64,000 nt of DNA from Actinomycetota bacterium (GTDB lineage Bacteria; Actinomycetota; Coriobacteriia; Anaerosomatales; PHET01), in assembly GCA_029265315.1 (NCBI GenBank), contig JAJUJM010000008.1:37777-101776 (forward strand), given 5' to 3'. This document shows positions 24,455 to 64,000 of the stretch, one piece after another. Made by a program: the position numbers and the translations under genes. The notes beneath the pieces were generated by a model, which saw only the letters and a list, made by a program, of their open reading frames with translations, had not been told where the DNA came from and did no database searches. Each line of letters starts with the position of its first letter. Position 1 is the stretch's first letter.

Positions 24455-24459
24455 CGACC

Positions 24460-25989: not shown

Positions 25990-26063
25990 CTCTGTGATGT
26001 AGCGGCTCTGCCGAGTTCACGGGGTGTACGCGGCCGGACCATGGGACGAGGGGAGTCACCCGT

Positions 26064-26444: not shown

Positions 26445-26458
26445 TAGGGCGGGGAGAC

Positions 26459-29342: not shown

Positions 29343-29371
29343 GGCTCGCTTCAGACGATGTTGGAGGACTG

Positions 29372-30598: not shown

Positions 30599-30638
30599 GG
30601 CGCGCGGACAGCCAGGCACACGACAGGAAGGCGACGCC

Positions 30639-33068: not shown

Positions 33069-33080
33069 GAAGGGGGACTC

Positions 33081-34346: not shown

Positions 34347-35954
34347 ATGGCGCTCGGTGTCTACGTCTCCCGCTGCGCGGGACGGGTCGACGCCGCACTC
34401 GACGTCGGGGACGCGCTTGATGGCGTGGCCTCGCGGGCTGCGGTGACCCGGGTGTTCGACGATTTCTTCGATGTGGGTGTGGCGGACTCCATCGTCGCCG
34501 ATGTCTCCGCCCACGGTCTGGACGCCGTCGTCTTGGCCGGCCACTCGGAGGAGCACTACCGCAAGAGCCTGTCCGCGAGCCACCTCATCGACCGAATCGC
34601 GGAGGCGGGCGTCAACCCCAACCGCATCGTCGCTGCCAACATCCTCGAACAGTGCGCGCTGGCGCATCCGGACGACCGCGCGGGCGCCACCGCGAAAGCC
34701 CGGGCCATCATCGGTGTCGCTGCGGACAGGGCCGGCTCCGGTGATGCGGTCGAGGGCGAGAGCGTCCGGCCGAAGTGCTCGGTCATGGTCCTGGGGGCGA
34801 GCGCGGAGGCGTTCGTCGCGGCGCAACGCCTGCTTCGCCTGGGGTACTCCGTCGTGCTCGCCGATCGCGAGGACGGCTGCGCCCGGGCCGGCAGGGCCCA
34901 GAGCATGCACGCGACGGCTTCGTACGTGCTCGGGCACCCGGCGGCCACGATCGTCGACAGCTCGCGGCTCGTCGATGGGGACGGGTTCCTCGGTGACTAC
35001 CACCTCGTCTTGGAGTCGCCGGAGGGCACGGTCACCTACGAGGTCGGGGGCATCCTGCTCGCGCGTCCTGACCACACGGAGTGGGTGGAGGAGCTGCGGC
35101 GTCACTTCCGCGTGGACGTCGACGATTCGGGGTTCGCCCGGTCGCTTGACCCGACGATGCACCCCGCTGAGACCGTGGACGAGGGCATCATGGTCATGCC
35201 GTTGCGTCGGAGCGATGCCAAGGAGTCAGAGAAGGTCGCTGCGGCCGACGCTGCGGCGATGGCGCTCGTGCTGAAGCTGTCCCATGACACGGTCGTACGG
35301 TACCGCCACACCTCGGTCGTCGATGAGTCCCTGTGCGGAGGCTGTGCCACATGTGTGCGCACGTGCGCGTTCGGTGCCTGCTACATCGGTGACGACGGGT
35401 TCAGCCACGTCGACGCCCGTCGCTGTGTGGGCTGTGGCAAGTGCGTCGTGAGCTGTCCGGTCGGAGCCAGAGACATCCTGAGCTCGCCGCACGACCATCT
35501 CATGCGCGCCGTGCGGGACCTCGCACAGGTCGAGACCACCTCCGACAAGGTGATCGGGTTTCTGTGCGGAGGGTGTGGCTACCCCGCCGCGGACCATGCG
35601 GCGAAGACCGTCGCGGAGCGCGGCGAGGGATACCCCTCATCATTCCTGCCCGTCCGGATTCCGTGCGGCGGGCGGCTCGACACGCTGTACGTGCTCGAGG
35701 CGTTCAAGGCCGGCTTCGACGGCGTGTGCGTGTATCGGTGCCGGGACGGTCACTGTCACAACCGGGTGGGCAACCTCGACATGGACCGGCGAGTGAATCT
35801 ACTCCGCACGGTGCTGCGCAGTCGAAACATCGATGACGCCCGCCTGCGCATCGTCGACATCTCGCCGTTCGAGGGCGACCACTTCGTCGACACACTGAAC
35901 GAGGTGTACGCCACGATCGGCGGCCTCACGAACGGGAAAGGAGGTGCGTTGTGA
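34347..35954 (+). CDS. HdrA-like / 2x[4Fe-4S] ferredoxin / MvhD-domain fusion protein (hydrogenase-associated electron-transfer subunit)
   Basis: CGGCATCVRTC...CVGCGKCVVSCP ferredoxin motifs. C-terminal MvhD/FlpD-like FLCGGCGYP...IPCGGRL...YRCRDGHCHN. The Rossmann region reads VLGASAEAF, so GxGxxG is degenerate. Confidence 0.65.
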   Translation: MALGVYVSRCAGRVDAALDVGDALDGVASRAAVTRVFDDFFDVGVADSIVADVSAHGLDAVVLAGHSEEHYRKSLSASHLIDRIAEAGVNPNRIVAANILEQCALAHPDDRAGATAKARAIIGVAADRAGSGDAVEGESVRPKCSVMVLGASAEAFVAAQRLLRLGYSVVLADREDGCARAGRAQSMHATASYVLGHPAATIVDSSRLVDGDGFLGDYHLVLESPEGTVTYEVGGILLARPDHTEWVEELRRHFRVDVDDSGFARSLDPTMHPAETVDEGIMVMPLRRSDAKESEKVAAADAAAMALVLKLSHDTVVRYRHTSVVDESLCGGCATCVRTCAFGACYIGDDGFSHVDARRCVGCGKCVVSCPVGARDILSSPHDHLMRAVRDLAQVETTSDKVIGFLCGGCGYPAADHAAKTVAERGEGYPSSFLPVRIPCGGRLDTLYVLEAFKAGFDGVCVYRCRDGHCHNRVGNLDMDRRVNLLRTVLRSRNIDDARLRIVDISPFEGDHFVDTLNEVYATIGGLTNGKGGAL

Positions 35955-36844
35955 GCAGGCCGACACTCGCCACGGTATCACTCGGAGGCTGCGAAGGCTG
36001 CCACGTCGCGCTGCTCGACGCACACGAGCGTCTGCTCGACCTGCTGGCGGCCGCCGACCTCGTGCACTCGCCCTTCAGCGGCGAGGAGGAGATACCCGAG
36101 AACGTGGACGTCGTGATGGTCGAAGGGGCCATCACGACCGAGGAGGACCTGCGCCGACTGCTGGCGGCCCGCGCTGCCGCGACGACGCTCGTCGCCGTCG
36201 GGTCCTGCGCGGTGCTCGGGGGCATAGGCGGGCTGCGCAACCTGGACCCGGTCGAGGAGGTGACGGCGACGGCGTTCGGTGACGCGGCGGGGTCGAAGTC
36301 CGAACGGCTCCCGCGCTTGCGTCGCCGCGTCCAGCCGGTCACTGACTTCGTGGACGTCGAGATCAGCGTGCCGGGCTGCGCGCCCGAGACCCAGCTCATC
36401 GTCGACGCGTTGACGGCGGCCGTGACGGGGACCCCGTACGAGCTGGACCGCCGTAACCTGTGTGACGAGTGCCCGCGTGAGAAGCAGACGTTGCTCGAGC
36501 ACTCCTCGGAGTTCGTCTCTGACAGCGTGGTGGCCCTGATGGAGCTCGATGAGATCGACGAGAAGCGCTGTCTGCTCGAGCAGGGTCTCATCTGCATGGG
36601 CCCGATGACGCGTGAGGGCTGCGGAGCCAAGTGCACGTCGATGAACGTGCCGTGCCGTGGCTGCATGGGCCCGAGCCGCATGGAGTTCGAACAAGGCGCC
36701 AAGACGATCGACGCGCTGGCGGCGGTGCTGCCGGCGGGCGCGATCATGTACATGGACGACCTCATCGGGACGAGCTACCGGTTCTCGATGCCGGTGTCCG
36801 TGTTCCCCGCGGCCTACCAGCATGAAGGAGGCGAAGATGCCTGA
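35951..36844 (+). CDS. [NiFe] hydrogenase small subunit, group 3 (MvhG-like)
   Basis: GTGA overlap with the upstream gene. LGGCEGCH proximal-cluster motif. GSCAVLGG. C-terminal Cys clusters CDECP...CMGPMTREGCGAKC...CRGCMGP. Confidence 0.8.
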   Translation: MSRPTLATVSLGGCEGCHVALLDAHERLLDLLAAADLVHSPFSGEEEIPENVDVVMVEGAITTEEDLRRLLAARAAATTLVAVGSCAVLGGIGGLRNLDPVEEVTATAFGDAAGSKSERLPRLRRRVQPVTDFVDVEISVPGCAPETQLIVDALTAAVTGTPYELDRRNLCDECPREKQTLLEHSSEFVSDSVVALMELDEIDEKRCLLEQGLICMGPMTREGCGAKCTSMNVPCRGCMGPSRMEFEQGAKTIDALAAVLPAGAIMYMDDLIGTSYRFSMPVSVFPAAYQHEGGEDA

Positions 36845-38249
36845 GGTCGTCAATCTCCCCGCGATCAAGCGGATCGAAGGCCACGGGCGTATCGCCCTCC
36901 ACCTGGACGAGGCGGGGCGTGTGGCCGACGCGCACTTCGACGTGATCGAGTTCCGGGGCTTCGAGCGCATGCTCGAGGGGCGCATGGTCTGGGAGATGCC
37001 GCTCATCACGAGCCGCATCTGCGGCGTGTGCCCCGTCTCGCACCACCTCGCGGCGGTCAAAGCGGTGGACGCGCTCTACGGAGTCCAGATCCCGCGCACA
37101 GCCGCGTTGCTGCGCGAGCTGCTGCATCTGGGCGGATTCGTCCAGGACCACGCGCTGCACTTCTTCTTCCTGGCCGGCCCGGACTTCCTCACCGGCGAGG
37201 GTGCGAGTCGTGACCTGCTCGGGGTCATCGAGGCCAGGCCGGACCTGGCTCGCGCTGCGATCGGGCTGCGAAAGGCAGGGCAGAGGGTCGTCGAGGCGGT
37301 CGGTGGGCGCACGAGCCACCCGGTGGCCGCCATCCCCGGCGGGATGAGCAAGGCGCTCGACGCGGAGGTGCGTGACGAGCTGCTCACGCTTGCCAGGAGC
37401 GTGCTGCCTGACGCTTTGCAGGCGGCCGAGCTCGCGGCCGAGACCACGGCGCGGCTGCTCGCCGAGCATCCGAACTATGCCGAGAACCCTGCGTACAACA
37501 TGGCTCAGATGCGTGACGGCGCCTTCGCGATCTACGACGGCACGATTCGCGTCAACGCCCCGGACGGGTCGCCGTTCGCGGCGTTCGATGCGAGCGAGTA
37601 CGAGAGCCACATCAGCGAGCGTGTGCTCGACGGCAGCTACGCGAACTCGCCGTACCTGAGTGCGCTCGGGGCTCAGGCGGGCGGGTACCGTGTCGGTCCG
37701 CTCGCTCGTGTGAACATGGCCGAATCGATGGGGACGCCGCACGCCGACGAGCTGCTCGCCGGGTTCCGCGAGCGCCACGGACGCCCGGTCCATGCGGTGC
37801 TCGCGTTCCACCACGCGAGGATGATCGAGCTCGTCGCGGCGGTAGAGCGCATGATCGACGTTCTCGAGGACGACGAGATCGGGTCGGACCAGGTGCGCGT
37901 CCGTGTGGACCGGGGCGTCGCCGGCCGCGGCATCGCGGCGGTGGAAGCTCCGCGGGGCACCCTCATCCACCACTACGAGGCCGACATGATGGGCAAGGTC
38001 ACGAAGGCGAACCTCATCGTGGCCACCACCCATAACGTCGGCTCGCTCGATTCCGCGGTTCTTGAGGCGGTACGCGGACTCGCGAAGGACGAGGCTCTCA
38101 CGGAGGGCAGCGTGCGCCACATGGAGCTCGGCATCCGCGCTCACGACCCGTGTCTGAGCTGCGCGACCCACGAGATCGGGCGTATGCCATTGGTCGTCAC
38201 CGTTCACGCTGCGGACGGGACCCTCGTCGCCGAGAAGGGGGTGGCGTAG
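36837..38249 (+). CDS. [NiFe] hydrogenase large subunit, group 3 (MvhA-like)
   Basis: ATG 36837 after GGAGGCGAAG, overlapping the small-subunit 3' end. N-terminal RICGVCPVSH. C-terminal DPCLSCATH followed by a cleavable extension. Confidence 0.85.
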   Translation: MPEVVNLPAIKRIEGHGRIALHLDEAGRVADAHFDVIEFRGFERMLEGRMVWEMPLITSRICGVCPVSHHLAAVKAVDALYGVQIPRTAALLRELLHLGGFVQDHALHFFFLAGPDFLTGEGASRDLLGVIEARPDLARAAIGLRKAGQRVVEAVGGRTSHPVAAIPGGMSKALDAEVRDELLTLARSVLPDALQAAELAAETTARLLAEHPNYAENPAYNMAQMRDGAFAIYDGTIRVNAPDGSPFAAFDASEYESHISERVLDGSYANSPYLSALGAQAGGYRVGPLARVNMAESMGTPHADELLAGFRERHGRPVHAVLAFHHARMIELVAAVERMIDVLEDDEIGSDQVRVRVDRGVAGRGIAAVEAPRGTLIHHYEADMMGKVTKANLIVATTHNVGSLDSAVLEAVRGLAKDEALTEGSVRHMELGIRAHDPCLSCATHEIGRMPLVVTVHAADGTLVAEKGVA

Positions 38250-42085: not shown

Positions 42086-42162
42086 CGGGCTGTGGCGCAG
42101 CTTGGTAGCGCATCTGCTTTGGGAGCAGAGGGTCGCAGGTTCAAATCCTGTCAGCCCGACCA
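42086..42162 (+). tRNA. tRNA-Pro (TGG), CCA encoded
   Basis: Acceptor CGGGCTG/CAGCCCG. Anticodon arm TCTGC-TTTGGGA-GCAGA. T-arm GCAGGTTCAAATCCTGT. Confidence 0.9.
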
Positions 42163-42167
42163 CACGT

Positions 42168-42243
42168 GCGGCGGTAGTTCAATTGGTAGAGCATCAGCCT
42201 TCCAAGCTGATTGTTGCGGGTTCGAGTCCCGTCCGCCGCTCCA
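42168..42243 (+). tRNA. tRNA-Gly (TCC), CCA encoded
   Basis: Acceptor GCGGCGG/CCGCCGC. Anticodon loop CTTCCAA. T-arm CGGGTTCGAGTCCCG. Confidence 0.9.
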
Positions 42244-42339
42244 AAGATGATTCTCGGGCGCCCGATGGGCGGCCGATTGACAACAGCAGCTCGCCGACTG
42301 TACCGTAGCGCTTCGGCACTCTCGGGCGAGCGGACACAT

Positions 42340-42416
42340 GCGCCCGTAGCTCAGCTGGATAGAGCGGGAGACTTCTAATCTCTAGGTCGGGGGTTCGAAT
42401 CCCTCCGGGCGTGCCA
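42340..42416 (+). tRNA. tRNA-Arg (TCT), CCA encoded
   Basis: Acceptor GCGCCCG/CGGGCGT. D-arm AGCTCAGCTGGATAGAGC. Anticodon loop CTTCTAA. T-arm GGGGTTCGAATCCCT. Confidence 0.85.
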
Positions 42417-42424
42417 GGAAACAC

Positions 42425-42502
42425 GGTGGGTGTAGCTCAGTTGGTTAGAGCGTCGGACTGTGGCTCCGAAGGTCGCGGGTTCGAGTCCCGTTACCCACCC
42501 CA
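42425..42502 (+). tRNA. tRNA-His (GTG) with encoded G-1, CCA encoded
   Basis: An extra 5' G pairs with discriminator C. Anticodon loop CTGTGGC. T-arm CGGGTTCGAGTCCCG. Confidence 0.85.
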
Positions 42503-42547
42503 TTGATAATCCGCGGCGTCACATCGCGTCATCAGGGCGCCGAACAT

Positions 42548-42623
<76 letters not shown>

Positions 42624-43306: not shown

Positions 43307-43391
43307 GCGGGCGTGGCGGAACTGGCAGACGCGCTGGATTTAGGTTCCAGTGGGGAAACTCGTGGAGGTTCGAGTCCTCTCGCCCGCACCA
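43307..43391 (+). tRNA. tRNA-Leu (TAG), long variable arm, CCA encoded
   Basis: Acceptor GCGGGCG/CGCCCGC. Anticodon arm CTGGA-TTTAGGT-TCCAG. Variable arm GTGGGGAAACTCGT. T-arm GGAGGTTCGAGTCCTCT. Confidence 0.9.
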
Positions 43392-50163: not shown

Positions 50164-51546
50164 GTGAGCGAGGTCGGCTACCTCGATGCGACCGCCGTGG
50201 TCGCCGCTGCGCTCAAGTTCGGTGTGAACCCGTCACTCGACGGGATCCGGGCGATGTGCGAGCAGATGGACCGGCCGCAGGACGCGTTCGTCTCCATCCA
50301 GGTCACGGGCACGAACGGCAAGACGTCGACCGCGCGCCTCATCGCCTCGCTGCTCGGCGCCGAGGGCCTGAACCGCGGGCTGTTCACGAGCCCCGAGCTG
50401 GAGCGCTACCCCGAGCGTATGGAGGTCGCCGGTCAGGTGGTCTCCGATGCCGAGTTCACGCGCGCGATCGCCGCGGCGCTCGAAGCGGCCGCACGTGCCA
50501 CGATGGCGGCAGGCGCATCACCCGGGGCGGCCGCTGACGCCACGGAGTTCGAACTGTTGACCGCGGCGGCGTTGTGGCTGTTCCGCGAGCGCGCCGTCGA
50601 GGTCGCCGTGCTCGAGGTGGGCATGGGAGGGCGCTGGGACGCGACGAGCGTGGTGTCGCCCGCGGTGTCCGTCGTGACCGGGGTCGGTCTGGACCACGTA
50701 GCGGTCCTCGGCGACACCCGGGAGGCGATCGCGACAGAGAAGGCGGCGATCATCGCACCCGGCGCGGTCGCCATCATCGGGCCGGGCACCGAGGGCATCG
50801 AGGAGGTCTTCACCACAAGGGCGGCCGAGGTGGGAGCGGAGCTGTACGCGGTCCGCGAGGTGGATGCTGGCTCTCCGGTGTCAGACGACCGTACCGTGCG
50901 CTACGCGGTCCGCAAGCGCCCGTCGTCACCTCTCGGCCACACCCTCATGGATGTCCGGAGCGCACACGGCTCCTACCGGGGCTTGCGGCTACGGGCCCCC
51001 GCCTACCAGGCGGCCAACGTCGCGACCGCGCTCGCTGCGGCCGAGGCGCAGCTGGGCCGTGCACTGGACCCGGCTCGGGTCGGGGAGGTCCTCGGTGCGA
51101 TACGCTTCCCGGGACGCTTCGAGGTGCTTGCCGAGCATCCGGCGATCATCGTCGATGGCTCACACAACCCGCAGGCGGCCGGCGTGCTCGCGGGCGCCAT
51201 CGCCGACGCGTGGCCGTCGCCGGAAGCGCGGCCGCTCGTCGTGCTCGGCGTGCTCGCCGACAAGGACGCGGCGGGCATCGTGCGAGCACTCGCCGAGGTC
51301 GCGGGCTCGTTCGCCGTCGTCGAGCCGGATTCGCCGCGCGCGCTGCCCGCGGAGAGTCTGGCCGAGGTTGTGCGCGAGGTCACCGGTGTGGCCCCCCGCG
51401 TGCTCGGGTCCGCTCGGGGGGCGGCGAGCTCTCTCGTCGCCCAGTCCGAGACGGATGTCGTCATCACGGGCTCTCTCACGACCGCGGGACAGGCGCGAGG
51501 GGCCCTTCTGCTATCATCCCGTCAGTCCGCGCGCACGCGCGGGTGA
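50164..51546 (+). CDS. folC: Folylpolyglutamate synthase / dihydrofolate synthase
   Basis: GTG 50164 inside track ORF 49846-51546. Mur-ligase P-loop VTGTNGKTST. Conserved valS-folC adjacency. Confidence 0.85.
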   Translation: MSEVGYLDATAVVAAALKFGVNPSLDGIRAMCEQMDRPQDAFVSIQVTGTNGKTSTARLIASLLGAEGLNRGLFTSPELERYPERMEVAGQVVSDAEFTRAIAAALEAAARATMAAGASPGAAADATEFELLTAAALWLFRERAVEVAVLEVGMGGRWDATSVVSPAVSVVTGVGLDHVAVLGDTREAIATEKAAIIAPGAVAIIGPGTEGIEEVFTTRAAEVGAELYAVREVDAGSPVSDDRTVRYAVRKRPSSPLGHTLMDVRSAHGSYRGLRLRAPAYQAANVATALAAAEAQLGRALDPARVGEVLGAIRFPGRFEVLAEHPAIIVDGSHNPQAAGVLAGAIADAWPSPEARPLVVLGVLADKDAAGIVRALAEVAGSFAVVEPDSPRALPAESLAEVVREVTGVAPRVLGSARGAASSLVAQSETDVVITGSLTTAGQARGALLLSSRQSARTRG

Positions 51547-54032: not shown

Positions 54033-55141
54033 GCCTGGCCACAAGACTCCTCGAGCGCCTCGTGGTGTTCTCCCTCGGATGGTGGGTCCTTTCGGAGGGA
54101 GAGGCGTCCTCGTGGGTCTTCGGTATCCCGTTCGCGCTGCTGGCGTCGTCCTCGGAGCACGCGCCTCAGCACGTGTGCCGTCCGGCGGCCGCGCGCAACC
54201 TGCTCATCGACGCCCTGCGCTTCGTGGCCATCGCGATGGTCGTCCTGACGCACGTGCTCAATCTGCGATGGGAGTTCAAGGAGCTGCCGCTTGCCGCTGA
54301 GACCGTGCGCGCGATGATGGCGTTCAACATGCCGCTGTTCGCGTTCGTGTCCGGCTATGTGAACCGGGGGCTGGAGCGCGACGGCCCATGGCGCTTTGTG
54401 CGCAGCAAGGCGTTGGCGCTGCTCGTGCCGTACTACGCGTGGATCATCGTGGAGATGCCATTGAGGCGCGTGGCGCTCGCTGATGCGCCGGAACGGCTGC
54501 TGCGCGCCGCGTTCGACCCCAAGGCGGCGTTTCAGATGTGGTTCCTGCTCGTGCTGTTCTACGCGTTCGCGCTGCTTGCACTCTCGCGCCTCGTCAGCCG
54601 CAGCGAGTGGTGGTTCGGCGGCGTCGCGCTCGCCGTGGGCCTGCTGCCGCTCGTGTGGGAACCGGACAGCAACCTCATCGTGAGGCTCTGCTGGCTCTAC
54701 CCGTTCGTGGTGGGCGGCTACCTCGTCGCCCGGCACCGTGAGAGCTGTCGTCGCTTCGACGACGTGGCGGCCGTCGTGGGGCTTGTCGCCTTTCCGCTCC
54801 TGCTTGCGAGTGGGTTGGACGGCGCGCCGTACCGTCTCGCGATCGGGGCCGCCGGCTCCGCGGCGCTCTGGGCGCTGTTGCGCTGGATGCCGCAGGCGGT
54901 CCTCACGCGGCTGGCGTGGGCCGGGGCGAAGTCGCTCGGTGTGTACGGTGGCCAGATGGTGCTGCTGCCGTTTCTGATCGTGGGCGCCGGCTGGCCGGGG
55001 GCGTTCACGAGCTGGGCGCTCGTGACGGCGGCCGCGCTCGCGCTCACGATGGCGCTCGAGCGCTTCGCCGTGACGCGTGCGATCTTCCTCGGGCAGTGGC
55101 CCAAGCCGACGAGGAACCGCGGGGCGGCCGCGGCGGCGTGA
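54029..55141 (+). CDS. Acyltransferase family 3 membrane protein (OafA-like)
   Basis: ATGA overlap with thrS. IDALRFVAIAMVVLTHV (catalytic His) and PLFAFVSGY motifs. About 10 TM segments. Confidence 0.7.
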   Translation: MSLATRLLERLVVFSLGWWVLSEGEASSWVFGIPFALLASSSEHAPQHVCRPAAARNLLIDALRFVAIAMVVLTHVLNLRWEFKELPLAAETVRAMMAFNMPLFAFVSGYVNRGLERDGPWRFVRSKALALLVPYYAWIIVEMPLRRVALADAPERLLRAAFDPKAAFQMWFLLVLFYAFALLALSRLVSRSEWWFGGVALAVGLLPLVWEPDSNLIVRLCWLYPFVVGGYLVARHRESCRRFDDVAAVVGLVAFPLLLASGLDGAPYRLAIGAAGSAALWALLRWMPQAVLTRLAWAGAKSLGVYGGQMVLLPFLIVGAGWPGAFTSWALVTAAALALTMALERFAVTRAIFLGQWPKPTRNRGAAAAA

Positions 55142-55288
55142 GGCACGCCGTAAGGAGGCGCAGCTTCCGGGCGGAGAGCGGCGGCTGTGCCGGCCGGCTC
55201 TTCCTGAGGCGCGGATCGCCACCGCTGCGCTACCATTGTCCGCGACCCGCGAAGCACAGCGACCACCCGCACACGGAGCAAGGAAGCC

Positions 55289-56344
55289 ATGATGACCCGC
55301 GAGACCGGAGCCGCGATCAGGCGCGAGGCCGACCGCCTGCTCGCCGAGGCGCTGAGGCGCCAGTGGGCGGCCATCCCCGGCCTCAAGGCGTCGTTCACGG
55401 ACGTGCAGGTCAAGAGCACCGAGGACGACATGCGCTACCACCTCATGTTCCTCGCGTCGGCATTGTGGGTGGGAAGCGAGGAGCTGTTCGCGGACTACGT
55501 GCGCTGGGTGGCCATCCTGTTCGACAATCTCCAGCTGCCGCGCATGTGGATCGTATCGAGCATGGAGTGCTGCCGGGGCGCCCTCGACGACGTCTTGCCC
55601 GCCCACCAAGCGGCGCTCGCAGACAGCTACCTCGACGTGGGGCTCGCCACGCTCGACGAGCCGCCCGCCGAGCTCGACACGCACCTCTCGCCAGACCAGC
55701 CCTACAGCGAGCTTGCCGTGCGCTACCTGGGGCACGTCCTCGGGGGCGAGCGGCACGAGGCGGTCGATCTCATCGACCAGTCGGCCCAAAGCGGCATGCG
55801 CATCGACGACATCTACCGCTGGGTGCTGCAGCCGGTACAGCTCGAGCTCGGGCGCCTGTGGCTCTCGAACCGCATCTCGGTCGCGCTCGAGCACTACGCG
55901 ACCGCGGTGACGCAGATGGCTATGTCGCGCCTGTACGGGAGGATGTTCACCGGCGAGCACACGGGGCGCCGTGTGGTGGCGGCGTGCATCGGCGGCGAGC
56001 TGCACGAGCTGGGCCTGCGCATGGTGGCCGACTTCCTCGAGATGGACGGCTGGGACTCGCACTACCTGGGGGCGAACACGCCGCTTGCCTCGATCGTCGA
56101 GACGGTGGCCGCGCTCGAGGCCGACCTCGTGGCGCTCTCGGCGACGATGAGCGTGTACGTGCCCGAGGTCGAGCAGGCCATCGCCGCGCTGCGCGCGGAC
56201 GAGCGCACGGCGAGCGCCCGGATCCTCGTGGGCGGCTACCCGTTCAACGTCGACCCGCGGATCTGGCAGGCCGTGGGCGCCGACGGCTCGGCGAAGGATG
56301 CCGACGAAGCGGTGCGCCTCGCATCCGAGCTGGTGGCGTCGTGA
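55289..56344 (+). CDS. Stand-alone CarH-like cobalamin (AdoB12) light-sensor module with a novel ~165 aa N-terminal domain
   Basis: Wx9EH (W 55859-55861, EH 55889-55894). ExHxxG (GELHELG, His codon 56003-56005), then exactly 41 aa to SAT and 28 aa to GG. No MerR DNA-binding domain. Confidence 0.75.
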   Translation: MMTRETGAAIRREADRLLAEALRRQWAAIPGLKASFTDVQVKSTEDDMRYHLMFLASALWVGSEELFADYVRWVAILFDNLQLPRMWIVSSMECCRGALDDVLPAHQAALADSYLDVGLATLDEPPAELDTHLSPDQPYSELAVRYLGHVLGGERHEAVDLIDQSAQSGMRIDDIYRWVLQPVQLELGRLWLSNRISVALEHYATAVTQMAMSRLYGRMFTGEHTGRRVVAACIGGELHELGLRMVADFLEMDGWDSHYLGANTPLASIVETVAALEADLVALSATMSVYVPEVEQAIAALRADERTASARILVGGYPFNVDPRIWQAVGADGSAKDADEAVRLASELVAS

Positions 56345-57684
56345 GCGGACGCCCCGGATTCGCGGTGTTCTGCAACGCCACTGGCGTCATCGAGGACGTG
56401 CTCGTGGACCGGGGCGGCCACGAGACGCCCCTGGGCCCCGGGGTGAGCCTCGCCGACGTGGTCGAACCTGACTCCCGCGGGAAGTTCCACGAATTCATCG
56501 TGCACGTGCGCACCGACCGGGCAGCGTTCGACTGGGAGCTCAACGTGCGCGCGTCGGGCGCGGTACACGCGATGCGCTTCTCCGGTGTGAAATCGCAGTT
56601 CGGGTGCCTCGTGATCGGCGTGAGCTCGGCCCGTGAGGTCGCGGACCTGGCCGACGAGTTCATCCAGATGAACAGCGAGCTTCTGAACACGATCCGCCAG
56701 CTGCGCAAGGAGGCCGCCGAACGCCCGGCCGTGAGCCTATCGCAGCTCGCCCGGATGAACAACGAGCTCACGAACCTGCAGCGCGAGCTCGCCAAACGCA
56801 ACGCCGAGCTCGAGCGCATGACGCGCTTCCGCGAGGCGGTGCTCGACACGCACCCGGACGTCGTCTACGTCTTCGAACTGGACCCGCCGCGCATCACGTA
56901 CGTGAACGGCCAGGTGGAGCGGGCGCTCGGCTGCTCGCGTCAGAGCGTGCTCGAACGCGGCGCGATCGCCGTGAACCCGGACGATGTGGCCGCCCGCAAC
57001 GAGGCCACGCGGCGCATCCGCGACGCCGCCGACGGCGAGGTCATCGTCTCCGAGGCACGGCTCAAGTGCGCGTGCGGCGACTGGTGCTGGTTCCGCTTCC
57101 ACGAGACCGTCTTCGCGAGGGCGGCCGACGGCACGGTGACGCAGGTGCTCGGCACCGCAGAGGACGTCACCGAGGAGCGCGTGATGCGCGAGCGGCTCCA
57201 GCAGCTCGCGCTCGTCGACGAGCTCACCGGGCTTTCCAACCGCCGCGGCTTCAGCGTGCTGTCCGAGCACGCGCTCGTGCAGGCCGAGCGCGCCGGCGCC
57301 GAGGTCGGGCTCGTGTACGTGGACGTCGACGGCTTGAAGGCGGTAAACGACGAGCTCGGTCACGCCGCCGGCGACGAGGCGCTCAAAGCCGTGGCGCGTC
57401 TGCTGCGCGAGACGATGCGCGCGTCAGACGTCGTGGCTCGCTGCGGGGGCGACGAGTTCCAGGTGCTCGCGATAGGCGATCCTGCGCTTGACCTCGAAGG
57501 GCTCGAGGCCCGCCTGCGAGCCGCCATCGATGCGTTCAACGCGTCCGTCGAACGGCCGTACCGGCTGTCCGTGAGCATCGGCGCGGTGCGCTGCGACCTG
57601 GCGGAGTCGTGTGACCTGGACGACTGGGTGACGAGGGCCGACGCGCGGATGTATGAGGAGAAGGCGCGCAAGAAGCGCCCCTGA
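56341..57684 (+). CDS. PAS - coiled coil - PAS - GGDEF diguanylate cyclase
   Basis: GTG 56341 overlaps the upstream stop (GTGA). GGDEF intact (RCGGDEFQVL) with RASD I-site. Track ORF 54916-57684 is an artefactual 5' extension of this frame. Confidence 0.85.
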   Translation: MSGRPGFAVFCNATGVIEDVLVDRGGHETPLGPGVSLADVVEPDSRGKFHEFIVHVRTDRAAFDWELNVRASGAVHAMRFSGVKSQFGCLVIGVSSAREVADLADEFIQMNSELLNTIRQLRKEAAERPAVSLSQLARMNNELTNLQRELAKRNAELERMTRFREAVLDTHPDVVYVFELDPPRITYVNGQVERALGCSRQSVLERGAIAVNPDDVAARNEATRRIRDAADGEVIVSEARLKCACGDWCWFRFHETVFARAADGTVTQVLGTAEDVTEERVMRERLQQLALVDELTGLSNRRGFSVLSEHALVQAERAGAEVGLVYVDVDGLKAVNDELGHAAGDEALKAVARLLRETMRASDVVARCGGDEFQVLAIGDPALDLEGLEARLRAAIDAFNASVERPYRLSVSIGAVRCDLAESCDLDDWVTRADARMYEEKARKKRP

Positions 57685-57712
57685 ACCTGCGCGCCGGCGC
57701 CTTGCGATCGCC

Positions 57713-57829
57713 TCACTCGTCCGCGACCGAGCAGACCTCCCACACGTGGCCCACGGGGTCGGGCGCTGACGTGGCCTGTTCCGGAGCGTGCTCCTCGCCG
57801 ACGATGGCTCCCGTCGGCCGGGCGCAGCC
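57713..57829 (-). pseudogene. Possible 3' remnant of a VOC/glyoxalase-family gene
   Basis: C-terminal peptide ...SAPDPVGHVWEVCSVADE* resembles the conserved DPxGHxWEI tail of VOC-family proteins. The N-terminal ~100 aa expected for the family are absent. Confidence 0.2.
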
Positions 57830-58070
57830 GATGGCCTTTTCAGCAATGGGACACAACCCCCTCATCGAAATGTGTGCGGTCTTGTGGGGTTTGCTCCCAA
57901 GGGGCGGGGGGTGTGGCTCAGCGGGCGCACAAGGAATCAAGAAGAAAAGCGGGGGGGGTACACACCGAATCCACAACCTCGCTCCACCATGTCAGACCTT
58001 TCCGCTACGATGAGTGTCGGCGCTGGCAGGGGGTTTGGCAGCGCTCCTTCTACCCCTCGGGAGGAACAAG

Positions 58071-61000
58071 ATGGGCGACACGGGCCTGCCGCGCCCCGGC
58101 ATGTTCGCGACGGTACGCAACCGTCGCGGGGTGATTGCCGCCGTCGAGCCGTTCGATGGCGAGGACGGCCGCGTGCACCTCGTTGAGCTCGACTACAAAG
58201 ACGACCAGCTCCCGGCCGCCGAGAAGCTCATCTGGGAGCTCGAGTTGCCGCACGCCAAGCTGCTCGAGCCGAACACGCTGCCCGACCCGTCGCGCTCGGC
58301 GCCGATGCCGGCCGAGGACTTCGATGCGCTCCTGCGCACGGCGCGCTGGACGAGCGCGATGCCGTTTCTGGACCCGGACGGGTCCGGTCCGCTCGAGCGC
58401 CTGCCGTTCCGCAGCCCGTTCCACGGTGCCGTCGAGGTCGACGACTACCAGCTCGTCCCGCTGCTCAAGGCGCTCAGGATGCCGCGCGTGAACCTGCTGA
58501 TCGCCGATGACGTGGGTATCGGCAAGACCGTCGAAGCCGGCCTCATCCTCTCCGAGCTCCTCATCCGCCGCCGCATCCAGCGCGTGCTCATCCTCACGCC
58601 GGCGTCGCTCAGGCTCCAGTGGCGAGACGAGATGTCCGAGAAGTTCTCGCTGCCCTTCGACCTCGTCGACCGCGCCGAGACGCAGGCGCTCAGGCGCCGC
58701 CTGGGGATGGACGCGAACCCGTGGCGCTCGTATGCGCGGGTCATCGCGTCGTACCACTACCTGCGCCAGCCCGACGTACTCGACCAGTTCATCGCTGCGT
58801 CGCGTCCCAAGGAGGGCTCGGCGCACCTGCCGTGGGACCTGCTCATCGTCGACGAGTGCCACAACCTCATGCCGTCGCCCTTCGGCGAGGACTCGGACCT
58901 CACGAAGATGCTGCGGCTCATCGCGCCGCTCTTCGAGCACCGGCTGTTCCTGTCGGCCACGCCGCACAACGGCCACACGCGCAGCTTCACGGGGCTGCTC
59001 GAGATCCTCGACCCGGTGCGCTTCAGCGTGACCGACGAGCTCAAGCCCGCCGAACGTGCCCGCGTCGAGCAGGTGGTGCTGCGGCGCCTCAAGTCCGAGA
59101 TCAACGCGCGTACGAACCCGCCGAAGTTCTGCACGCGCCTCGAGCCGATCACGCTCACGCTTACCGCGTCGGCGGCCGAGGAGGCCGCGCTCACGGAGGC
59201 GTTCGGCGAGTTCCGCGCCGCGATGCGCGCGTGGATCGCCGCCGGCGACCGCAAGCGCCGCCGGGCGGGAAGCTTCGCGGTCGAGATTCTGGGCAAGCGG
59301 TTGCTCTCGTGCCCGGTCGCGTTCGCGGAATCGTGGCGGCGCTGCCAAGAAGGGCTCGCGGAGGCCGAAGAGGCGAGTGAGTCTGAGGTCGACGCCGCCC
59401 GCAAGTCCGTCGAGCGCGAGACCGGCGACGACCGCGAGGCGCAGTCGCAGGAAGCCACGGCGGCCGGCATCGTGGGCGCGTGGCTCAAGAAGGCCGCGCC
59501 GCACATCCAGCATCAGATCGCAGCGATCGATGCGGCGGTCGCCCGGCTCGGCCTCGATGGGGCGTCGGCTGGCTCGTGCGCCGACGTCGACCCGGCGTCC
59601 GACTCGCGGCTCGATGCCCTCTTCGCGCTCATCGAGCAGCTGCTGCGCCGTGACGGCGTGTGGCGCGACGACGAGCGGCTCGTCGTGTTCACCGAGTACA
59701 AGACCACGCTCGACTACCTCGCGCGCCGGCTGCGCGAGCGCTACGAGCCCGAGCGCGTCCTCACGCTGTACGGCGGCATGGACGATGCCGAGCGCGACGC
59801 GGTGAAGCGCGCCTTCAACGACCCCGCCGAGCATGTCCGCATCCTCATCGGCACCGATGCGGCGTCAGAAGGACTGAACCTGCAGCGCACCGCTCGCTAC
59901 CTGCTCCACTACGACCTGCCGTGGAACCCGAGCAAGCTCGAGCAGCGCAACGGCCGCCTCGACCGCCACGGCCAGGCCCGCGACGTGCAGATCTTCCACT
60001 TCGGCTCTGACACCGACGACGACCTGAAGTTCCTCGCGCACGTCATGCGCAAGGCGAACAGCATCCGCGAGGACCTGGGTAGCGCGAACGAGCTCTTCGA
60101 CGAGGCCGCCCACCGCCGCCTCATCGACGGCGAGAGCGCCGCGACCGTGACGGACGACCTCGAGAAGCGCCTGCTCGTGAACCAGGGCCGCGCGCGCATC
60201 GACGCGGACGCGACGGTCGTCACCGGCGGTGAGGACGCTGCGGCCGCCGAGCAGCTCAACGCGCTCGCCGCCGAGCTCGACCTGGACCCGGACGCGATGC
60301 GCGAGACGCTCGAGGCGGCGCTCGCCATCCGCGCGGGGCGCCCGCAGCTGCAACCGTCGCCCGCAGAGCCCGAGACCTGGCGGCTGCTCAACCCCGATCT
60401 GGCTGGCTGGGCCGAGGTCGTCGACGAGAGCCTGCGCACCGACGCCGGGCGTGCGGGCAAAGGCGGGCTCAGGCGGCTCGCCTTCGACGGCGCGCCCTTC
60501 ATCGAGCGGGTAGGCGATCGCACCGTGTTCAATCCGCGTCCCGACGTGGCGATGATGCACCTGTCTCACCCGATGCTCGACCGCGCGTTCTCGCTGCTCT
60601 CGCGCCGCCGGTATGCGGCGACCGGCGAGGAGGTGAGCCGCTGGACGGTGCGCGTGGGCGGCGTGCCGCAGGACGCCGATGCGCTCGTGCTGCTCTCCGT
60701 CGAGGAGATTGGCGTGAACGAGCTGCGCGAGACGTTCCACCACTGGGTGCGCACGATCGCGCTCCCCGTGCGTGCAGGGCACCTAGGAGAAGCGCTGCCA
60801 CACGAGGCGGCGGCGCGCCTACGCGACGCGGCGCCCGCGAGCGATCCCGGAATCGTCGAGCGCGCCACAGAGGTCTTCGAGGACGTGCTGCCGGACCTGA
60901 AGGCGCTCATCACGCGGCACGCAGCCGAGCTCACCGCGACACTGCGCGGCGAGCTCACGGCGGCAGGCGAGCAGGCCCGCGCCGATGAGGAGAAGCGCTT

Positions 61001-61334
61001 CGCGAGCCGCGCAGGCGAGGTCTCCGCGCTCATCGCCGAGAACACGCTTTCCAAGCTCGAGCGCGAGATCGCCGCGCTCAAGGCGCGGCGCGCGCAGGGG
61101 GCGCTCTTCGACGAGGAGGCACGCCTGGAAGACCTCGACCGCTCCATCGAGGAGAAGCAAGCCGAGATAGAGCGCCGGCGCCGTCACTACGAGGAGGTCC
61201 GCGAGCAGCTCGAGCGAGAGCGCGAGCGCATCATCCGCCGCCTGCTGCCCAAGCGGCACGCGATGGCCGGCGAGGCGCACGTCTTCCCGGTGTGCGTCGA
61301 GGTCCGCCTGCCGGATTCCGGGGGTGCGCGATGA
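58071..61334 (+). CDS. SNF2-family helicase (DISARM DrmD-like) with C-terminal coiled coil
   Basis: ATG 58071 after GGGAGGAAC. Motif I DDVGIGKT (GKT 58521-58529), motif II DECH (58851-58862), LSATPHNG, helicase-C TDAASEGLNLQ...WNPSKLEQRNGRLDRHGQ. Confidence 0.85.
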   Translation: MGDTGLPRPGMFATVRNRRGVIAAVEPFDGEDGRVHLVELDYKDDQLPAAEKLIWELELPHAKLLEPNTLPDPSRSAPMPAEDFDALLRTARWTSAMPFLDPDGSGPLERLPFRSPFHGAVEVDDYQLVPLLKALRMPRVNLLIADDVGIGKTVEAGLILSELLIRRRIQRVLILTPASLRLQWRDEMSEKFSLPFDLVDRAETQALRRRLGMDANPWRSYARVIASYHYLRQPDVLDQFIAASRPKEGSAHLPWDLLIVDECHNLMPSPFGEDSDLTKMLRLIAPLFEHRLFLSATPHNGHTRSFTGLLEILDPVRFSVTDELKPAERARVEQVVLRRLKSEINARTNPPKFCTRLEPITLTLTASAAEEAALTEAFGEFRAAMRAWIAAGDRKRRRAGSFAVEILGKRLLSCPVAFAESWRRCQEGLAEAEEASESEVDAARKSVERETGDDREAQSQEATAAGIVGAWLKKAAPHIQHQIAAIDAAVARLGLDGASAGSCADVDPASDSRLDALFALIEQLLRRDGVWRDDERLVVFTEYKTTLDYLARRLRERYEPERVLTLYGGMDDAERDAVKRAFNDPAEHVRILIGTDAASEGLNLQRTARYLLHYDLPWNPSKLEQRNGRLDRHGQARDVQIFHFGSDTDDDLKFLAHVMRKANSIREDLGSANELFDEAAHRRLIDGESAATVTDDLEKRLLVNQGRARIDADATVVTGGEDAAAAEQLNALAAELDLDPDAMRETLEAALAIRAGRPQLQPSPAEPETWRLLNPDLAGWAEVVDESLRTDAGRAGKGGLRRLAFDGAPFIERVGDRTVFNPRPDVAMMHLSHPMLDRAFSLLSRRRYAATGEEVSRWTVRVGGVPQDADALVLLSVEEIGVNELRETFHHWVRTIALPVRAGHLGEALPHEAAARLRDAAPASDPGIVERATEVFEDVLPDLKALITRHAAELTATLRGELTAAGEQARADEEKRFASRAGEVSALIAENTLSKLEREIAALKARRAQGALFDEEARLEDLDRSIEEKQAEIERRRRHYEEVREQLERERERIIRRLLPKRHAMAGEAHVFPVCVEVRLPDSGGAR

Positions 61335-64000
61335 GCGCGCAGCAGCTGCCACTCGTCGGCACGCGCGCACCGGGCGCCTCGACGGGTGCCGCACCAGGCG
61401 CCGCGATCCCCGGCTGGGACCTGCTGCGCCACGGCGGCCTGCTCCTCGACCCGCAGCGCCTGCGCGAGGTCGCGGCCCACGAGCCGCCCGCGCTCGACGC
61501 CTACACGGAGCGCGAGCTGCGCAAGCGCCTCACCGCGCTGCTCGACGACACGGACGGCGCCGCCGACACTCCGGCGTTCGTCGCCTTCGTCCTCGAGCGG
61601 GTCTGCGGCTTCGGGCCGCACGCCGGCGGCGCGTGGGTGCGCGGGTCGGCCGTCGAGGCGAAGTACGGCCGGCGCGCGATCACCGGCGAGACGATCAAGC
61701 CGCAGCACCTGTGGCTGGGGCCGCGCGGCGGGATGCTGCCGGTCTTCATCGACCGCGAGAAGCGCGTGGGCGTGGGCCGGGGCCGGCGCACGGTGAGCAA
61801 CGTGCTGCAGTGGCTGCGCGCGAGCAACCGGCGCCTCGCGCTCGTCACCAACGGCCGCCAGTGGCGCCTCGTCTTCGCGGGGCTCGACTTCGAGGCGTTC
61901 GCTGAGGCCGACGCCGAGCTCTTCGTCGAGGAGGGCGGGCTCTCGGCCCAGCTCACCGGGGTGCGCACGCTGCTGCAGCCCGCACTCTGGACGCCGGCCG
62001 AAGAGGGCGCGACCCCTGCGCTGGAGCGGGCCATCCTCGACGCCCGCAAGGGCCAGGCCGAGCTCTCGGCTGTGCTCGGCGAGCGGGTGCGCGAGGCCGT
62101 CGAGGTGCTCGTGCAGGCGCACGGCGACCTGCTGGCCGAGCAGGCGGTAGGCCTCCCGCCGGCCGACATCTACCGCGCGGCGGTGCGCATCGTCATGCGC
62201 ATGGTGGTCGTGCTCTTCGCCGAGTCACGCGAGCTGCTCCCGTCCGACAATGCGCTCTACCACGCCTCGTACGGCCTGTCCGGCCTCATCGAGGAGCTGC
62301 AGAAGGTCCGCCACCGCTCATCGGGCCGCCTCAAGCGCAGCCACGCGGCGTGGCCGCGGGTGCTCTCACTCTTCCGCCTCGTGCACCAGGGCTCCGGTCA
62401 CGAGGCGCTCGCCGTGCCCGCCTACGGCGGCGAGCTGTTCGCGCCCGGCGATCCGGACGGCCCGGACCCGCTCTCCCGCGCGCTCGCCATCTTCGAGCGT
62501 GGCTGCTACGAGCGCGAGGCGGTATCTGACCGCGACGTCCACGACATGCTCGAGCTCATCACGCGCACGCGCGTGAAGATCCGCCAGGGCCGCAGCGCCA
62601 CCTGGGTGACCGCGCCCGTGGACTTCTCCGACCTGTCCAGCGAGTACATCGGCATCCTGTACGAGGGCCTGCTCGACTACGAGCTCAAGCAGGCGCCCGC
62701 AGACGACCCGGTGGTCTTCCTCAGCGTTGGCAACGCGCCCGCGCTGCCGCTCTCGCGCCTTGAGGCGATGGATGATGCAGCGATCCGCTCGCTGCTCGAG
62801 TCGATGAAGGCCGAAACGAGCTCAGAAGACGCCGGCGAGGACGAGGCCGAGCCCGCCGACGAGGCGCCCGACGCCGCGCCGGAGCCCGGCGACGAGGAGC
62901 TTCCCGAGGAGGTCGTCGCCGAAGACGAGCTCGACGCGGACCTGCTTGCCGCCGAGGACGCGCCCGCCGAGCGCGACAAGGCCCTCGACGCCCGCCAGAC
63001 GGCGCGCCTGCGCGCCGAGGAGTGGGCGCGGCGCGCCGTGCTCGCCGCCAAGCTCGTGCGAGCGCCGCGCGGTACGCTCACGCCCGAGAAGCAGCTCGCG
63101 CACGAGGCTGCGCTCGACGCCAAGGCGCGCCAGCTGCTCGATAAGCGCGGTGTCGTGCTGCCTGGTGAGTGGTACGTGGTGCGCTGGGGCGGCACGCGAA
63201 AGGGCGCTGGCACGTTCTATACGCGCCCCGGCCTCGCGGTGCCTACCGTGCAGCGTACGCTCCGTCCGCTCGCCTACGACCCGCCGACGCGCGAAGACGG
63301 CTCGCCGGACACGAGCGCGCCGCAAAGCGCCTGGACGCCCAAGCGCCCCGAAGACATCCTGGCGCTCAAGGTCTGCGACCCGGCGTGCGGCTCGGGCACC
63401 TTCCCGGTCGCGGCGCTGCGCTACCTCACCGACGCGCTCTACGAGTCGCTCATCCACCACGAGCGCGTGAGCGACGACACCACGCACGAGCGCGCCATCG
63501 TGCGCCTGATCGAGCCGCCGGAAGGCGAGGAGCTCCCTGAGGAGCGCCTCGCGCACGAGCTCGTGCCGTGCCGCACGACCGATGCCGAGTTCGAGCCGCG
63601 TCTGAAAGCGCTGCTTCGCCGCCACGTCGTGGAGCGCTGCATCTACGGCGTGGACCTCGACCCGCTCGCCGTCGAGCTTGCGCGGCTGTCGCTCTGGATC
63701 GAGACGATGGACCGCTCGCTGCCGTTCTCGTTCCTCGACCACAAGGTGAAGTGCGGCAACTCGCTTGTCGGCGCGTGGTTCGACACGTTCCGTCACTACC
63801 CCGTGATGGCGTTCAAGAACCGCGAGGGCGGCGACAAGGGGCACGCAAACGGCGTGCACTTCGCCAAGGACGCGCGCACGAAGGGGCTGAAGGAGTTCGC
63901 GTCAGGGCCGCTCAAGAGCGACCTTACGCGCTTCCTGTCCGGGCCGACGCTCTTCGACGCGCGCGACTTGGCCGCCGAAGCGACCACCGTCCACGACGAC
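61331..64000 (+). CDS. Large N6-adenine DNA methyltransferase (Eco57I/PglX/DrmMI-like), 3' end beyond window
   Basis: ATGA overlap with the SNF2 gene. I translated 890 codons by eye with no stop to the window end. The ORF is absent from the supplied track. SAM motif VCDPACGSGTF (63377-63397), YGVDLDPLAVELARLSLWIE, KCGNSLVG. Confidence 0.8.
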   Translation, partial: MSAQQLPLVGTRAPGASTGAAPGAAIPGWDLLRHGGLLLDPQRLREVAAHEPPALDAYTERELRKRLTALLDDTDGAADTPAFVAFVLERVCGFGPHAGGAWVRGSAVEAKYGRRAITGETIKPQHLWLGPRGGMLPVFIDREKRVGVGRGRRTVSNVLQWLRASNRRLALVTNGRQWRLVFAGLDFEAFAEADAELFVEEGGLSAQLTGVRTLLQPALWTPAEEGATPALERAILDARKGQAELSAVLGERVREAVEVLVQAHGDLLAEQAVGLPPADIYRAAVRIVMRMVVVLFAESRELLPSDNALYHASYGLSGLIEELQKVRHRSSGRLKRSHAAWPRVLSLFRLVHQGSGHEALAVPAYGGELFAPGDPDGPDPLSRALAIFERGCYEREAVSDRDVHDMLELITRTRVKIRQGRSATWVTAPVDFSDLSSEYIGILYEGLLDYELKQAPADDPVVFLSVGNAPALPLSRLEAMDDAAIRSLLESMKAETSSEDAGEDEAEPADEAPDAAPEPGDEELPEEVVAEDELDADLLAAEDAPAERDKALDARQTARLRAEEWARRAVLAAKLVRAPRGTLTPEKQLAHEAALDAKARQLLDKRGVVLPGEWYVVRWGGTRKGAGTFYTRPGLAVPTVQRTLRPLAYDPPTREDGSPDTSAPQSAWTPKRPEDILALKVCDPACGSGTFPVAALRYLTDALYESLIHHERVSDDTTHERAIVRLIEPPEGEELPEERLAHELVPCRTTDAEFEPRLKALLRRHVVERCIYGVDLDPLAVELARLSLWIETMDRSLPFSFLDHKVKCGNSLVGAWFDTFRHYPVMAFKNREGGDKGHANGVHFAKDARTKGLKEFASGPLKSDLTRFLSGPTLFDARDLAAEATTVHDD

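Follow-up and report, generated by a model that had tools for sequence, protein, structure and literature searches.

A globin-first photocobilin gene overlapping a diguanylate cyclase gene in a Coriobacteriia bacterium, and a conserved PAS module encoded downstream of stand-alone photocobilins

The overlapping sensor and effector genes

The window, i.e. the whole stretch of 64,000 nucleotides analyzed here (contig JAJUJM010000008.1 of the Actinomycetota assembly GCA_029265315.1), carries on its + strand two genes that overlap by their stop and start codons (Table 1). The first one encodes a sensor of 351 amino acids (aa) and the second one an effector of 447 aa that ends with a GGDEF diguanylate cyclase domain. 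Our analysis revealed that the sensor is a photocobilin whose globin precedes its B12-binding module, and that it is neither a CarH protein nor a corrinoid protein involved in methyl transfer. It also revealed that the effector opens with a PAS-containing module, hereafter called the partner module, which is encoded directly downstream of photocobilin genes in both bacteria and archaea.

The GTGA overlap of the two genes, described in a previous sequence-only reading of this DNA, is present in the sequence. The GTG start of the effector agrees with the gene call of NCBI (P0122), which has the length of the open reading frame (ORF) opened by this codon and is 100% identical to it over the 165 N-terminal residues compared. 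The true start of the sensor gene may be the second ATG (55292), since a homologue that is 95% identical (P0001) is 350 aa long and aligns with residues 2-351 of the sensor. A scan of positions 54900-58100 detected neither a sigma-70-like promoter nor a + strand terminator, a result that is uninformative for an actinobacterium.

Table 1. Positions in the window of the two genes, of their domains and of their key residues
Feature	Position	Strand	Basis or remark
Photocobilin (sensor) gene, 351 aa	55289..56344	+	ORF scan; photoglobin domain, then adenosylcobalamin (AdoCbl)-type B12-binding domain
Photoglobin (bilin-binding globin-like) domain, aa ~1-125	55289..55663	+	Pfam PF00502 and profile against PDB
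D47 of photoglobin	55427-55429	+	Aligns with biliverdin-contacting Asp270 of SasPcob
W73 of photoglobin	55505-55507	+	Aligns with biliverdin-contacting Trp296 of SasPcob
Four-helix-bundle cap (B12-binding_2), aa 145-215	55721..55933	+	Pfam PF02607, E 6e-11
Rossmann-fold B12-binding domain, aa 228-342	55970..56314	+	Pfam PF02310, E 3e-24
GTGA stop/start overlap	56341..56344	+	Sequence; sensor TGA and effector GTG
Effector gene, 447 aa	56341..57684	+	Partner PAS, two helices, second PAS, GGDEF; Pfam and NCBIfam
Partner module, aa 6-164	56356..56832	+	AlphaFold2 (AF2) model; PAS fold (6-94), helices 97-127 and 133-164
Second PAS domain, aa 165-280	56833..57180	+	Pfam PAS_3, PAS_4, PAS_8
GGDEF domain, aa 290-445	57208..57675	+	Pfam E 4e-34, 118 bits; TIGR00254 127.8 bits
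RxxD I-site, R360-A-S-D363	57418-57429	+	Five residues upstream of GGDEF
GGDEF motif, aa 369-373	57445-57459	+	Intact

The sequence-only reading had recognized in the 351-aa protein the two signatures of CarH-type light sensors (Wx9EH and ExHxxG), the second one being followed by SxT and GG, and all the positions and spacings given for these four motifs proved to be exact. The first one, W191-x9-E201-H202, corresponds to WLSNRISVALEH (55859-55894) and the second one to E237-L-H239-E-L-G242, whose axial His is encoded by positions 56003-56005. G242 is separated by 41 residues from S284 of the S284-A-T286 motif, T286 by 28 residues from G315-G316, and the distance from H202 to H239 is 37 residues. 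The search with hidden Markov models (HMMs) that had been proposed as a check matched both Pfam families, B12-binding and B12-binding_2, far beyond chance. In an alignment of the sensor with 120 homologues (121 sequences), eight of the motif residues never vary, namely W191, E201, H202, H239, G242, S284, T286 and G315. Furthermore, the signature GxxW, EH, GxxH and GxxxP, published as that of light-responsive B12-binding domains (PMC11796333), is complete in the sensor (G188xxW191, E201H202, G236xxH239 and G261xxxP265), and its residues are invariant or nearly so in the 121 sequences and in relatives across phyla, G236 being somewhat variable.

The N-terminal domain of about 165 aa that had been left unassigned can in fact be assigned, its residues ~1-125 being a photoglobin. 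The Phycobilisome family of Pfam (PF00502) matches residues 8-117 with 26.1 bits for a cutoff of 22.2. A profile of the sensor N-terminal domain from 20 family members (A6) matched in the PDB the globin domains of the photocobilins SasPcob (E 2.6e-10) and AbPcob (1.5e-6) as well as phycocyanins and allophycocyanins (E 1e-9 to 1e-4). The two residues that align with biliverdin-contacting residues of SasPcob (Table 1; SasPcob numbers follow PMC10979010, with an offset of +6 relative to the SEQRES index) are, together with Y70, invariant in the 121 aligned sequences, which represent the close family. The whole N-terminal region is helical in the AF2 model. Since this photoglobin is a homologue of the SasPcob domain that binds biliverdin, the protein is a photocobilin and not a bare CarH module, and it is probably a two-chromophore sensor.

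The comparison with solved structures leads to the same assignment. The closest relatives are SasPcob (8J2W/8J2X, E 2e-27) and AbPcob (8J2Y, E 1e-23), followed by the B12 domain of CtMerR (8JBS); CarH (only E 1e-8) and the methylamine corrinoid proteins rank behind the photocobilins. In the alignments with photocobilins, the N-terminus of the sensor pairs with their C-terminal globin, i.e. the architecture is the same but the order of the domains is swapped. The AF2 model of the sensor, built from 69 sequences, has a predicted local distance difference test score (pLDDT) of 94 and a predicted template modelling score (pTM) of 0.90, the latter, calculated on the whole chain, indicating a fixed arrangement of the globin and the B12 module. 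When this model was compared with the PDB by Foldseek, the top matches were light-sensing B12 domains, namely 8JBS and then 8J2W (root-mean-square deviation 2.2 Å, 34% identity). A true CarH was rejected because the MerR domain is absent and because the CarH model of NCBIfam (NF052513) reaches only 59.5 bits for a cutoff of 400 and covers the B12 part alone. The lack of a MerR DNA-binding domain had already been pointed out and agrees with the absence of any MerR or helix-turn-helix match in Pfam or NCBIfam, the N-terminus being occupied by the globin. Therefore, the previous description of a stand-alone CarH-type module remains valid for the B12 module, which is of the CarH-like light-sensor type, but not for the whole protein.

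A function in methyl transfer, as a corrinoid protein of the MtbC/MtaC type, was also considered, since many homologues bear the automatic JGI name 'methanogenic corrinoid protein MtbC1', since the NCBIfam models MtbC, MtgC and pyl_corrinoid match the sensor weakly and since the fold of the sensor is similar to 3EZX and 7XCN. However, these NCBIfam matches reach about 50-54 bits for curated cutoffs of 215-370, and CarH and photocobilin relatives outscore the corrinoid methyl-transfer proteins. In addition, the sensor combines the light-sensor signature with a bilin-type globin, and no methyltransferase was found in the neighbourhoods annotated with Pfam, which encode kinases, cyclases and response regulators. 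This candidate was therefore rejected as extremely improbable, and the B12 module is, as the sequence-only reading had proposed, of the light-sensor type.

Concerning the effector, its description as a PAS-coiled-coil-PAS-GGDEF protein holds, the first ~165 aa being modelled by AF2 as a PAS fold followed by two long helices. The Pfam GGDEF match spans positions 1-159 of the 161 profile positions and, with its GGDEF and RxxD motifs intact, the domain looks catalytically complete.

Conservation of the gene pair and of the partner module

A survey of relatives revealed that the PAS-GGDEF gene is kept downstream of sensors showing 95%, 76% and 51% identity with the one of the window (loci L039, L040 and L041, respectively), with different flanking genes. 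The pair is thus conserved in different genomic contexts, and these three loci show an ATGA or GTGA overlap between sensor and effector genes. More generally, 52 of 92 related loci allow a 4-bp NTGA overlap. In the relative with 51% identity (loci L041-L044; Coriobacteriia metagenome-assembled genome, MAG), the PAS-GGDEF gene is followed by a third one that overlaps its end (for example 8456/8513-9268 in L041); it encodes a small soluble HisKA-HATPase protein of 251-270 aa that has no sensor domain, and it is absent from the window.

In Anaerolineales, Gemmatimonadaceae and other groups, the gene downstream of more distant full-length sensor homologues encodes instead a HisKA-HATPase protein of about 400 aa. 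The first ~170 residues of these kinases, devoid of Pfam annotation, were found by tblastn and HMM comparison to be homologous to residues 1-165 of the effector. In total, 18 distinct loci, belonging to Chloroflexota, Cloacimonadota, Gammaproteobacteria, Sumerlaeaceae, Bacteroidota, Coriobacteriia, Gemmatimonadota, Methanomicrobiales and Methanomassiliicoccales, encode the partner module directly downstream of a photoglobin-B12 gene. Among the MAGs of the last two groups, four loci (L004, L007, L025 and L032) carry a photoglobin-B12 gene in which the Wx9EH motif, the axial His and the bilin Asp and Trp are intact, and three of them (L004, L007 and L025) have the partner PAS gene downstream.

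A reverse test, which removes selection bias, was carried out on 80 metagenome loci chosen by the partner module alone (alignment A5). A B12 or photocobilin gene lies at most 0.8 kb upstream, on the same strand, in 72 of the 74 informative loci. In detail, photoglobin and B12 domains are encoded immediately upstream on the same strand in 55 of the 80 loci; in 10 others, a B12 domain is found upstream but the contig ends before the globin; three show the SasPcob-like order (B12 then globin), two have a B12 domain only, two have a B12 gene 0.5-0.8 kb upstream, six have no upstream sequence, and only two lack a B12 gene. In three metagenome loci (L054, L079 and L081), the partner PAS module directly follows a photocobilin with the SasPcob-like order, so that this module is common to both domain orders. 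No fusion of the sensor with the partner PAS ('Rosetta stone') was found among 150 representatives, except for a single protein carrying a B12 fragment of 52 residues that is likely a gene-call artefact.

The partner module was modelled by AF2 with a pLDDT of 88. Its near-invariant residues are C11, G15, K48, W65, R119, N140, N141, Q147 and R148, and its PAS fold bears a nearly invariant Cys, a nearly invariant Lys and an FDWE motif. Pfam gives no match within aa 1-164 of the effector and neither Pfam nor NCBIfam gives any in aa 1-100; the only NCBIfam models extending into aa 103-164 are distant ones, ArcB and a MASE3-kinase, far below their cutoffs. Likewise, none of the 25 commonest Pfam families in 107 proteins carrying the partner module represents the module itself. 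An exhaustive HMMER scan detected it in 905 representative clusters (396 at E <= 1e-10), and, with a single exception among the 150 best clusters, it starts at most ~35 residues from the N-terminus. The outputs that follow it are varied: HisKA in 73 of the 107 proteins, HATPase_c in 72 and GGDEF in 23, besides REC and HD domains, and one protein looks as if it had a SpoIIE-like output. In a Cloacimonadota MAG (L003, 7120-7848), the module appears to be followed only by a short Cys-rich tail (CSNC...CPEC), with no enzyme domain. Foldseek matched the partner module to PAS domains, first the N-Q-PAS1 region of PpsR in the AppA-PpsR2 complex and then PAS-B heterodimerisation domains of ARNT.

Because of this synteny and of the constancy of the module in front of varied outputs, the simplest reading is that the partner module is likely a docking or receiver domain for the photocobilin. 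Whether it is dedicated to stand-alone photocobilins, and hence defines a widespread modular two-chain photoreceptor system, appears to us evenly balanced; in such a system, one type of sensor chain would serve kinases, cyclases, phosphatases or HD phosphodiesterases. This conserved module goes beyond the literature that we found, the gene pair being otherwise an ordinary new member of the photocobilin family.

It could be argued that the two genes are merely adjacent, the cyclase being controlled through its own PAS domains by some other ligand and the B12 protein acting on another target. Indeed, PAS domains often bind ligands of their own and, as illustrated by the third gene of L041, such operons can carry other signalling parts. 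However, the synteny statistics make this explanation quite improbable: a B12 gene precedes the partner PAS in almost all informative loci chosen by that PAS alone (72/74), the module is constant whereas the outputs vary, stop/start overlaps are frequent, and the pair is constant among relatives whereas the flanking genes differ.

Signalling model, host and nature of the signal

The domain identities, the presence and invariance of the chromophore residues, the synteny of sensor and partner module observed in both directions and the interchangeable outputs behind this module lead us to favour, with moderate confidence, a two-protein photoreceptor system in which the photocobilin signals to the cyclase. 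What we infer in this model is that the cofactors are bound, that light is the signal, that the two proteins dock and in which direction the cyclase is regulated.

The C-terminal half of the sensor would bind AdoCbl in the base-off/His-on mode via H239, the adenosyl group being presumably held by W191 and E201-H202. The photoglobin would pack on the B12 module and probably holds a linear tetrapyrrole via D47 and W73; with such a bilin, the sensitivity of the sensor to green light would extend to red light. On the model of SasPcob, the sensor, loaded with AdoCbl and possibly with a bilin, is probably a head-to-tail dimer in the dark, and light would cleave the Co-C bond, shift the EH helix and change the quaternary structure. 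The co-translated cyclase would sense this change with its N-terminal module (PAS plus helices) and transmit it through the helical linker and the second PAS so as to re-orient the GGDEF halves and change the synthesis of cyclic di-GMP (c-di-GMP), on which the RxxD I-site would exert product feedback inhibition. The window encodes possible downstream players. One is a GGDEF-EAL protein of 550 aa (20996-22648). The other (26177-28273) is a secretion/pilus ATPase of the T2SSE family that carries an MshEN domain and is located inside a chemotaxis cluster (23708-34124) that also encodes a DUF4388 protein, CheR, CheY, two CheW, a methyl-accepting chemotaxis protein, CheA and CheB. MshEN is a c-di-GMP-binding domain family, and the ATPase could act as a receptor of the c-di-GMP that the cyclase produces.

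Several points weigh against this model. First, the binding of the cofactors, the photochemistry and the physical complex of the two proteins are deduced from the sequences. Second, the host is an uncultured anaerobic member of the Coriobacteriia, Anaerosomatales-like: the ThrS encoded by the window is 90% identical to a protein from a 'Coriobacteriia bacterium' MAG and 79-80% identical to proteins from Anaerosomatales MAGs, and an MvhD/FlpD-like protein with the small and large subunits of an Mvh-type NiFe hydrogenase (34347-38249) indicates an anaerobic, hydrogen-metabolising organism. Third, methanogens and other strict anaerobes also possess the pair with intact signature residues. The canonical synthesis of biliverdin requires O2, and in strict anaerobes one may doubt both light itself and a supply of biliverdin by an O2-dependent heme oxygenase. 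No heme oxygenase was found among the window proteins scanned with Pfam, a scan that excluded folC (~50200-51546). An Rfam scan of the whole window at gathering thresholds gave only the transfer-messenger RNA (tmRNA) and six tRNAs, and no cobalamin riboswitch. Fourth, the characterised photocobilins have the opposite domain order. Fifth, the cyclase used in the published experiment in trans has no PAS partner module (PMC10979010), and therefore the docking surface proposed here derives from synteny only. Lastly, the second PAS domain of the effector could sense something unrelated.

The anaerobic character of the host and of many relatives and the O2 requirement of biliverdin synthesis led us to keep in play a variant in which the same two-protein switch would relay to the cyclase another signal than light, namely the availability of AdoCbl or of a tetrapyrrole, the redox state or exposure to O2, for example by oxidation or ligand exchange at the cobalt. 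The family is common in strict anaerobes and in methanogens from sediments and digesters, the host is hydrogen-metabolising, and the W and EH residues are required for adenosyl binding with or without a light trigger. However, all the proteins with the full signature that have been tested, i.e. CarH, CtMerR, SasPcob and AbDPcob, are photoactive (PMC11796333, PMC10979010), the invariant bilin-contacting Asp and Trp fit an optical antenna, and microbial mats and sediments, in which light is possible, are the source of some metagenome loci. We therefore regard a non-light signal as unlikely, although clearly less so than mere adjacency, and still favour the two-protein photoreceptor.

Among the other features of the window, a radical S-adenosylmethionine enzyme with a B12-binding domain (17436-18794) indicates that the host has other uses of cobalamin. 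Directly downstream of the operon, the genes encoding a DrmD SNF2 helicase (58014-61334; PADLOC, 676 bits) and a DrmMI or type IIG methyltransferase-like protein (61331-64000 and past the end of the window; 404-665 bits) appear to open a DISARM defence island of class 1. The tmRNA gene (20466-20818) adjoins smpB (19845-20336), and five tRNA genes are clustered at 42086-42620, the sixth one being located at 43307-43388.

What is worth following up is the conserved partner PAS module and the anaerobic distribution of the system. If its role is confirmed, this module would mark the natural target of stand-alone photocobilins, which the photocobilin paper left open, and a modular system in strict anaerobes and methanogenic archaea would imply an unstudied sensing of light or of B12/tetrapyrroles in these organisms. 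The occurrence in anaerobic Coriobacteriia and in methanogens raises two questions: (i) in the absence of an O2-dependent heme oxygenase, which tetrapyrrole occupies the pocket of the globin, and (ii) whether light is the real signal there. Furthermore, the pair (351 aa and 447 aa) is a compact native system for studying the transmission from sensor to enzyme in trans, and is of interest for the optogenetic control of c-di-GMP by green and red light.

Comparison with known systems

The photoglobin family was defined computationally by Schneider et al. (2022, CSBJ, PMC8717448). According to that article, photoglobin is fused before or after the domains B12-binding_2 and B12-binding, and photoglobin/B12 genes form operons with genes encoding sensor kinases or GGDEF, EAL/HD-GYP or SpoIIE proteins. 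Thereafter, SasPcob and AbDPcob were shown to bind both AdoCbl and biliverdin, either chromophore being able to trigger the cleavage of the Co-C bond (Zhang et al., Nat Commun 2024, PMC10979010). In the light, the cyclase of AbDPcob, a fusion of a photocobilin with a diguanylate cyclase, is activated more than 10-fold, and isolated stand-alone photocobilins act in trans on this cyclase in its isolated form, which they activate and whose oligomeric state they alter (PMC10979010). The same paper predicts groups of photocobilins with an N- or C-terminal B12 domain, calls the function of the stand-alone ones 'less clear' and, in its supplement, reports that they adjoin kinases and diguanylate cyclases. 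The statement of the sequence-only reading that a c-di-GMP output had not been established for such sensors is thus outdated. Since the control of diguanylate cyclases by photocobilins and their gene neighbourhoods are already published, as are both domain orders, the gene pair itself adds little and cannot be claimed as a novelty. The proposal that B12-dependent oligomerisation gates the cyclase is plausible but unproven: in the light, SasPcob passes from dimer to monomer, whereas AbDPcob, the fusion, remains a dimer and undergoes a conformational change (PMC10979010).

SasPcob and AbDPcob (8J2W/8J2X/8J2Y) share with the sensor of the window a CarH-like B12 domain with Wx9EH and the axial His, a fused phycobiliprotein-like globin and a functional tie to a GGDEF cyclase, an in-trans mode having been proposed for the stand-alone SasPcob. 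The biliverdin-contacting Asp and Trp of SasPcob are also shared, whereas AbPcob has a His in place of the Asp. The characterised members differ from the sensor in their order, B12 then globin, and the identity of the B12 parts is only about 31-34%. The globin-first order is a predicted structural group in PMC10979010, of which no member has been characterised; since the literature takes both orders as one family, the reversed order is no bar to membership. Furthermore, and unlike the characterised systems, the cyclase of the window is encoded by a separate overlapping gene, its product opens with a dedicated PAS module, and the host is an anaerobe. Such a module is not mentioned in the main text of PMC10979010, nor in its supplements as covered by a search with five terms. 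The photoglobin/B12 'regulatory bundle' of PMC8717448, a purely computational family, covers exactly the case of the window; in the accessible part of that article, the neighbours are taken as generic PAS/GAF sensor kinases or effectors and no conserved N-terminal partner module is singled out.

CarH/LitR from T. thermophilus and M. xanthus (5C8A-5C8F) have the same four-helix cap and Rossmann fold, the Wx9EH and E/DxH(xxG) motifs and the same spacings. In these AdoCbl-dependent transcriptional repressors, the photolysis of the Co-C bond changes the oligomeric state. Unlike them, the sensor of the window has no MerR domain, carries an additional globin and would have an enzyme output in trans instead of DNA binding. 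Moreover, T. thermophilus CarH has His132 after its Trp, whereas W191 of the sensor is followed by Leu, and therefore the bis-His light state of CarH is unlikely in the sensor.

Lastly, AppA-PpsR (4HH3) and AerR-CrtJ are cases in which a protein with a B12-type or SCHIC domain acts on a PAS-domain partner. In both, as proposed for the pair of the window, a sensor with a B12 fold regulates a separate protein via the N-terminal PAS and long-helix region of the latter. The Foldseek match with AppA-PpsR (E about 3e-4, 15-17% identity) is of a kind that PAS folds give in general; we claim no homology, and the PAS partners of these systems are DNA-binding repressors and not enzymes.

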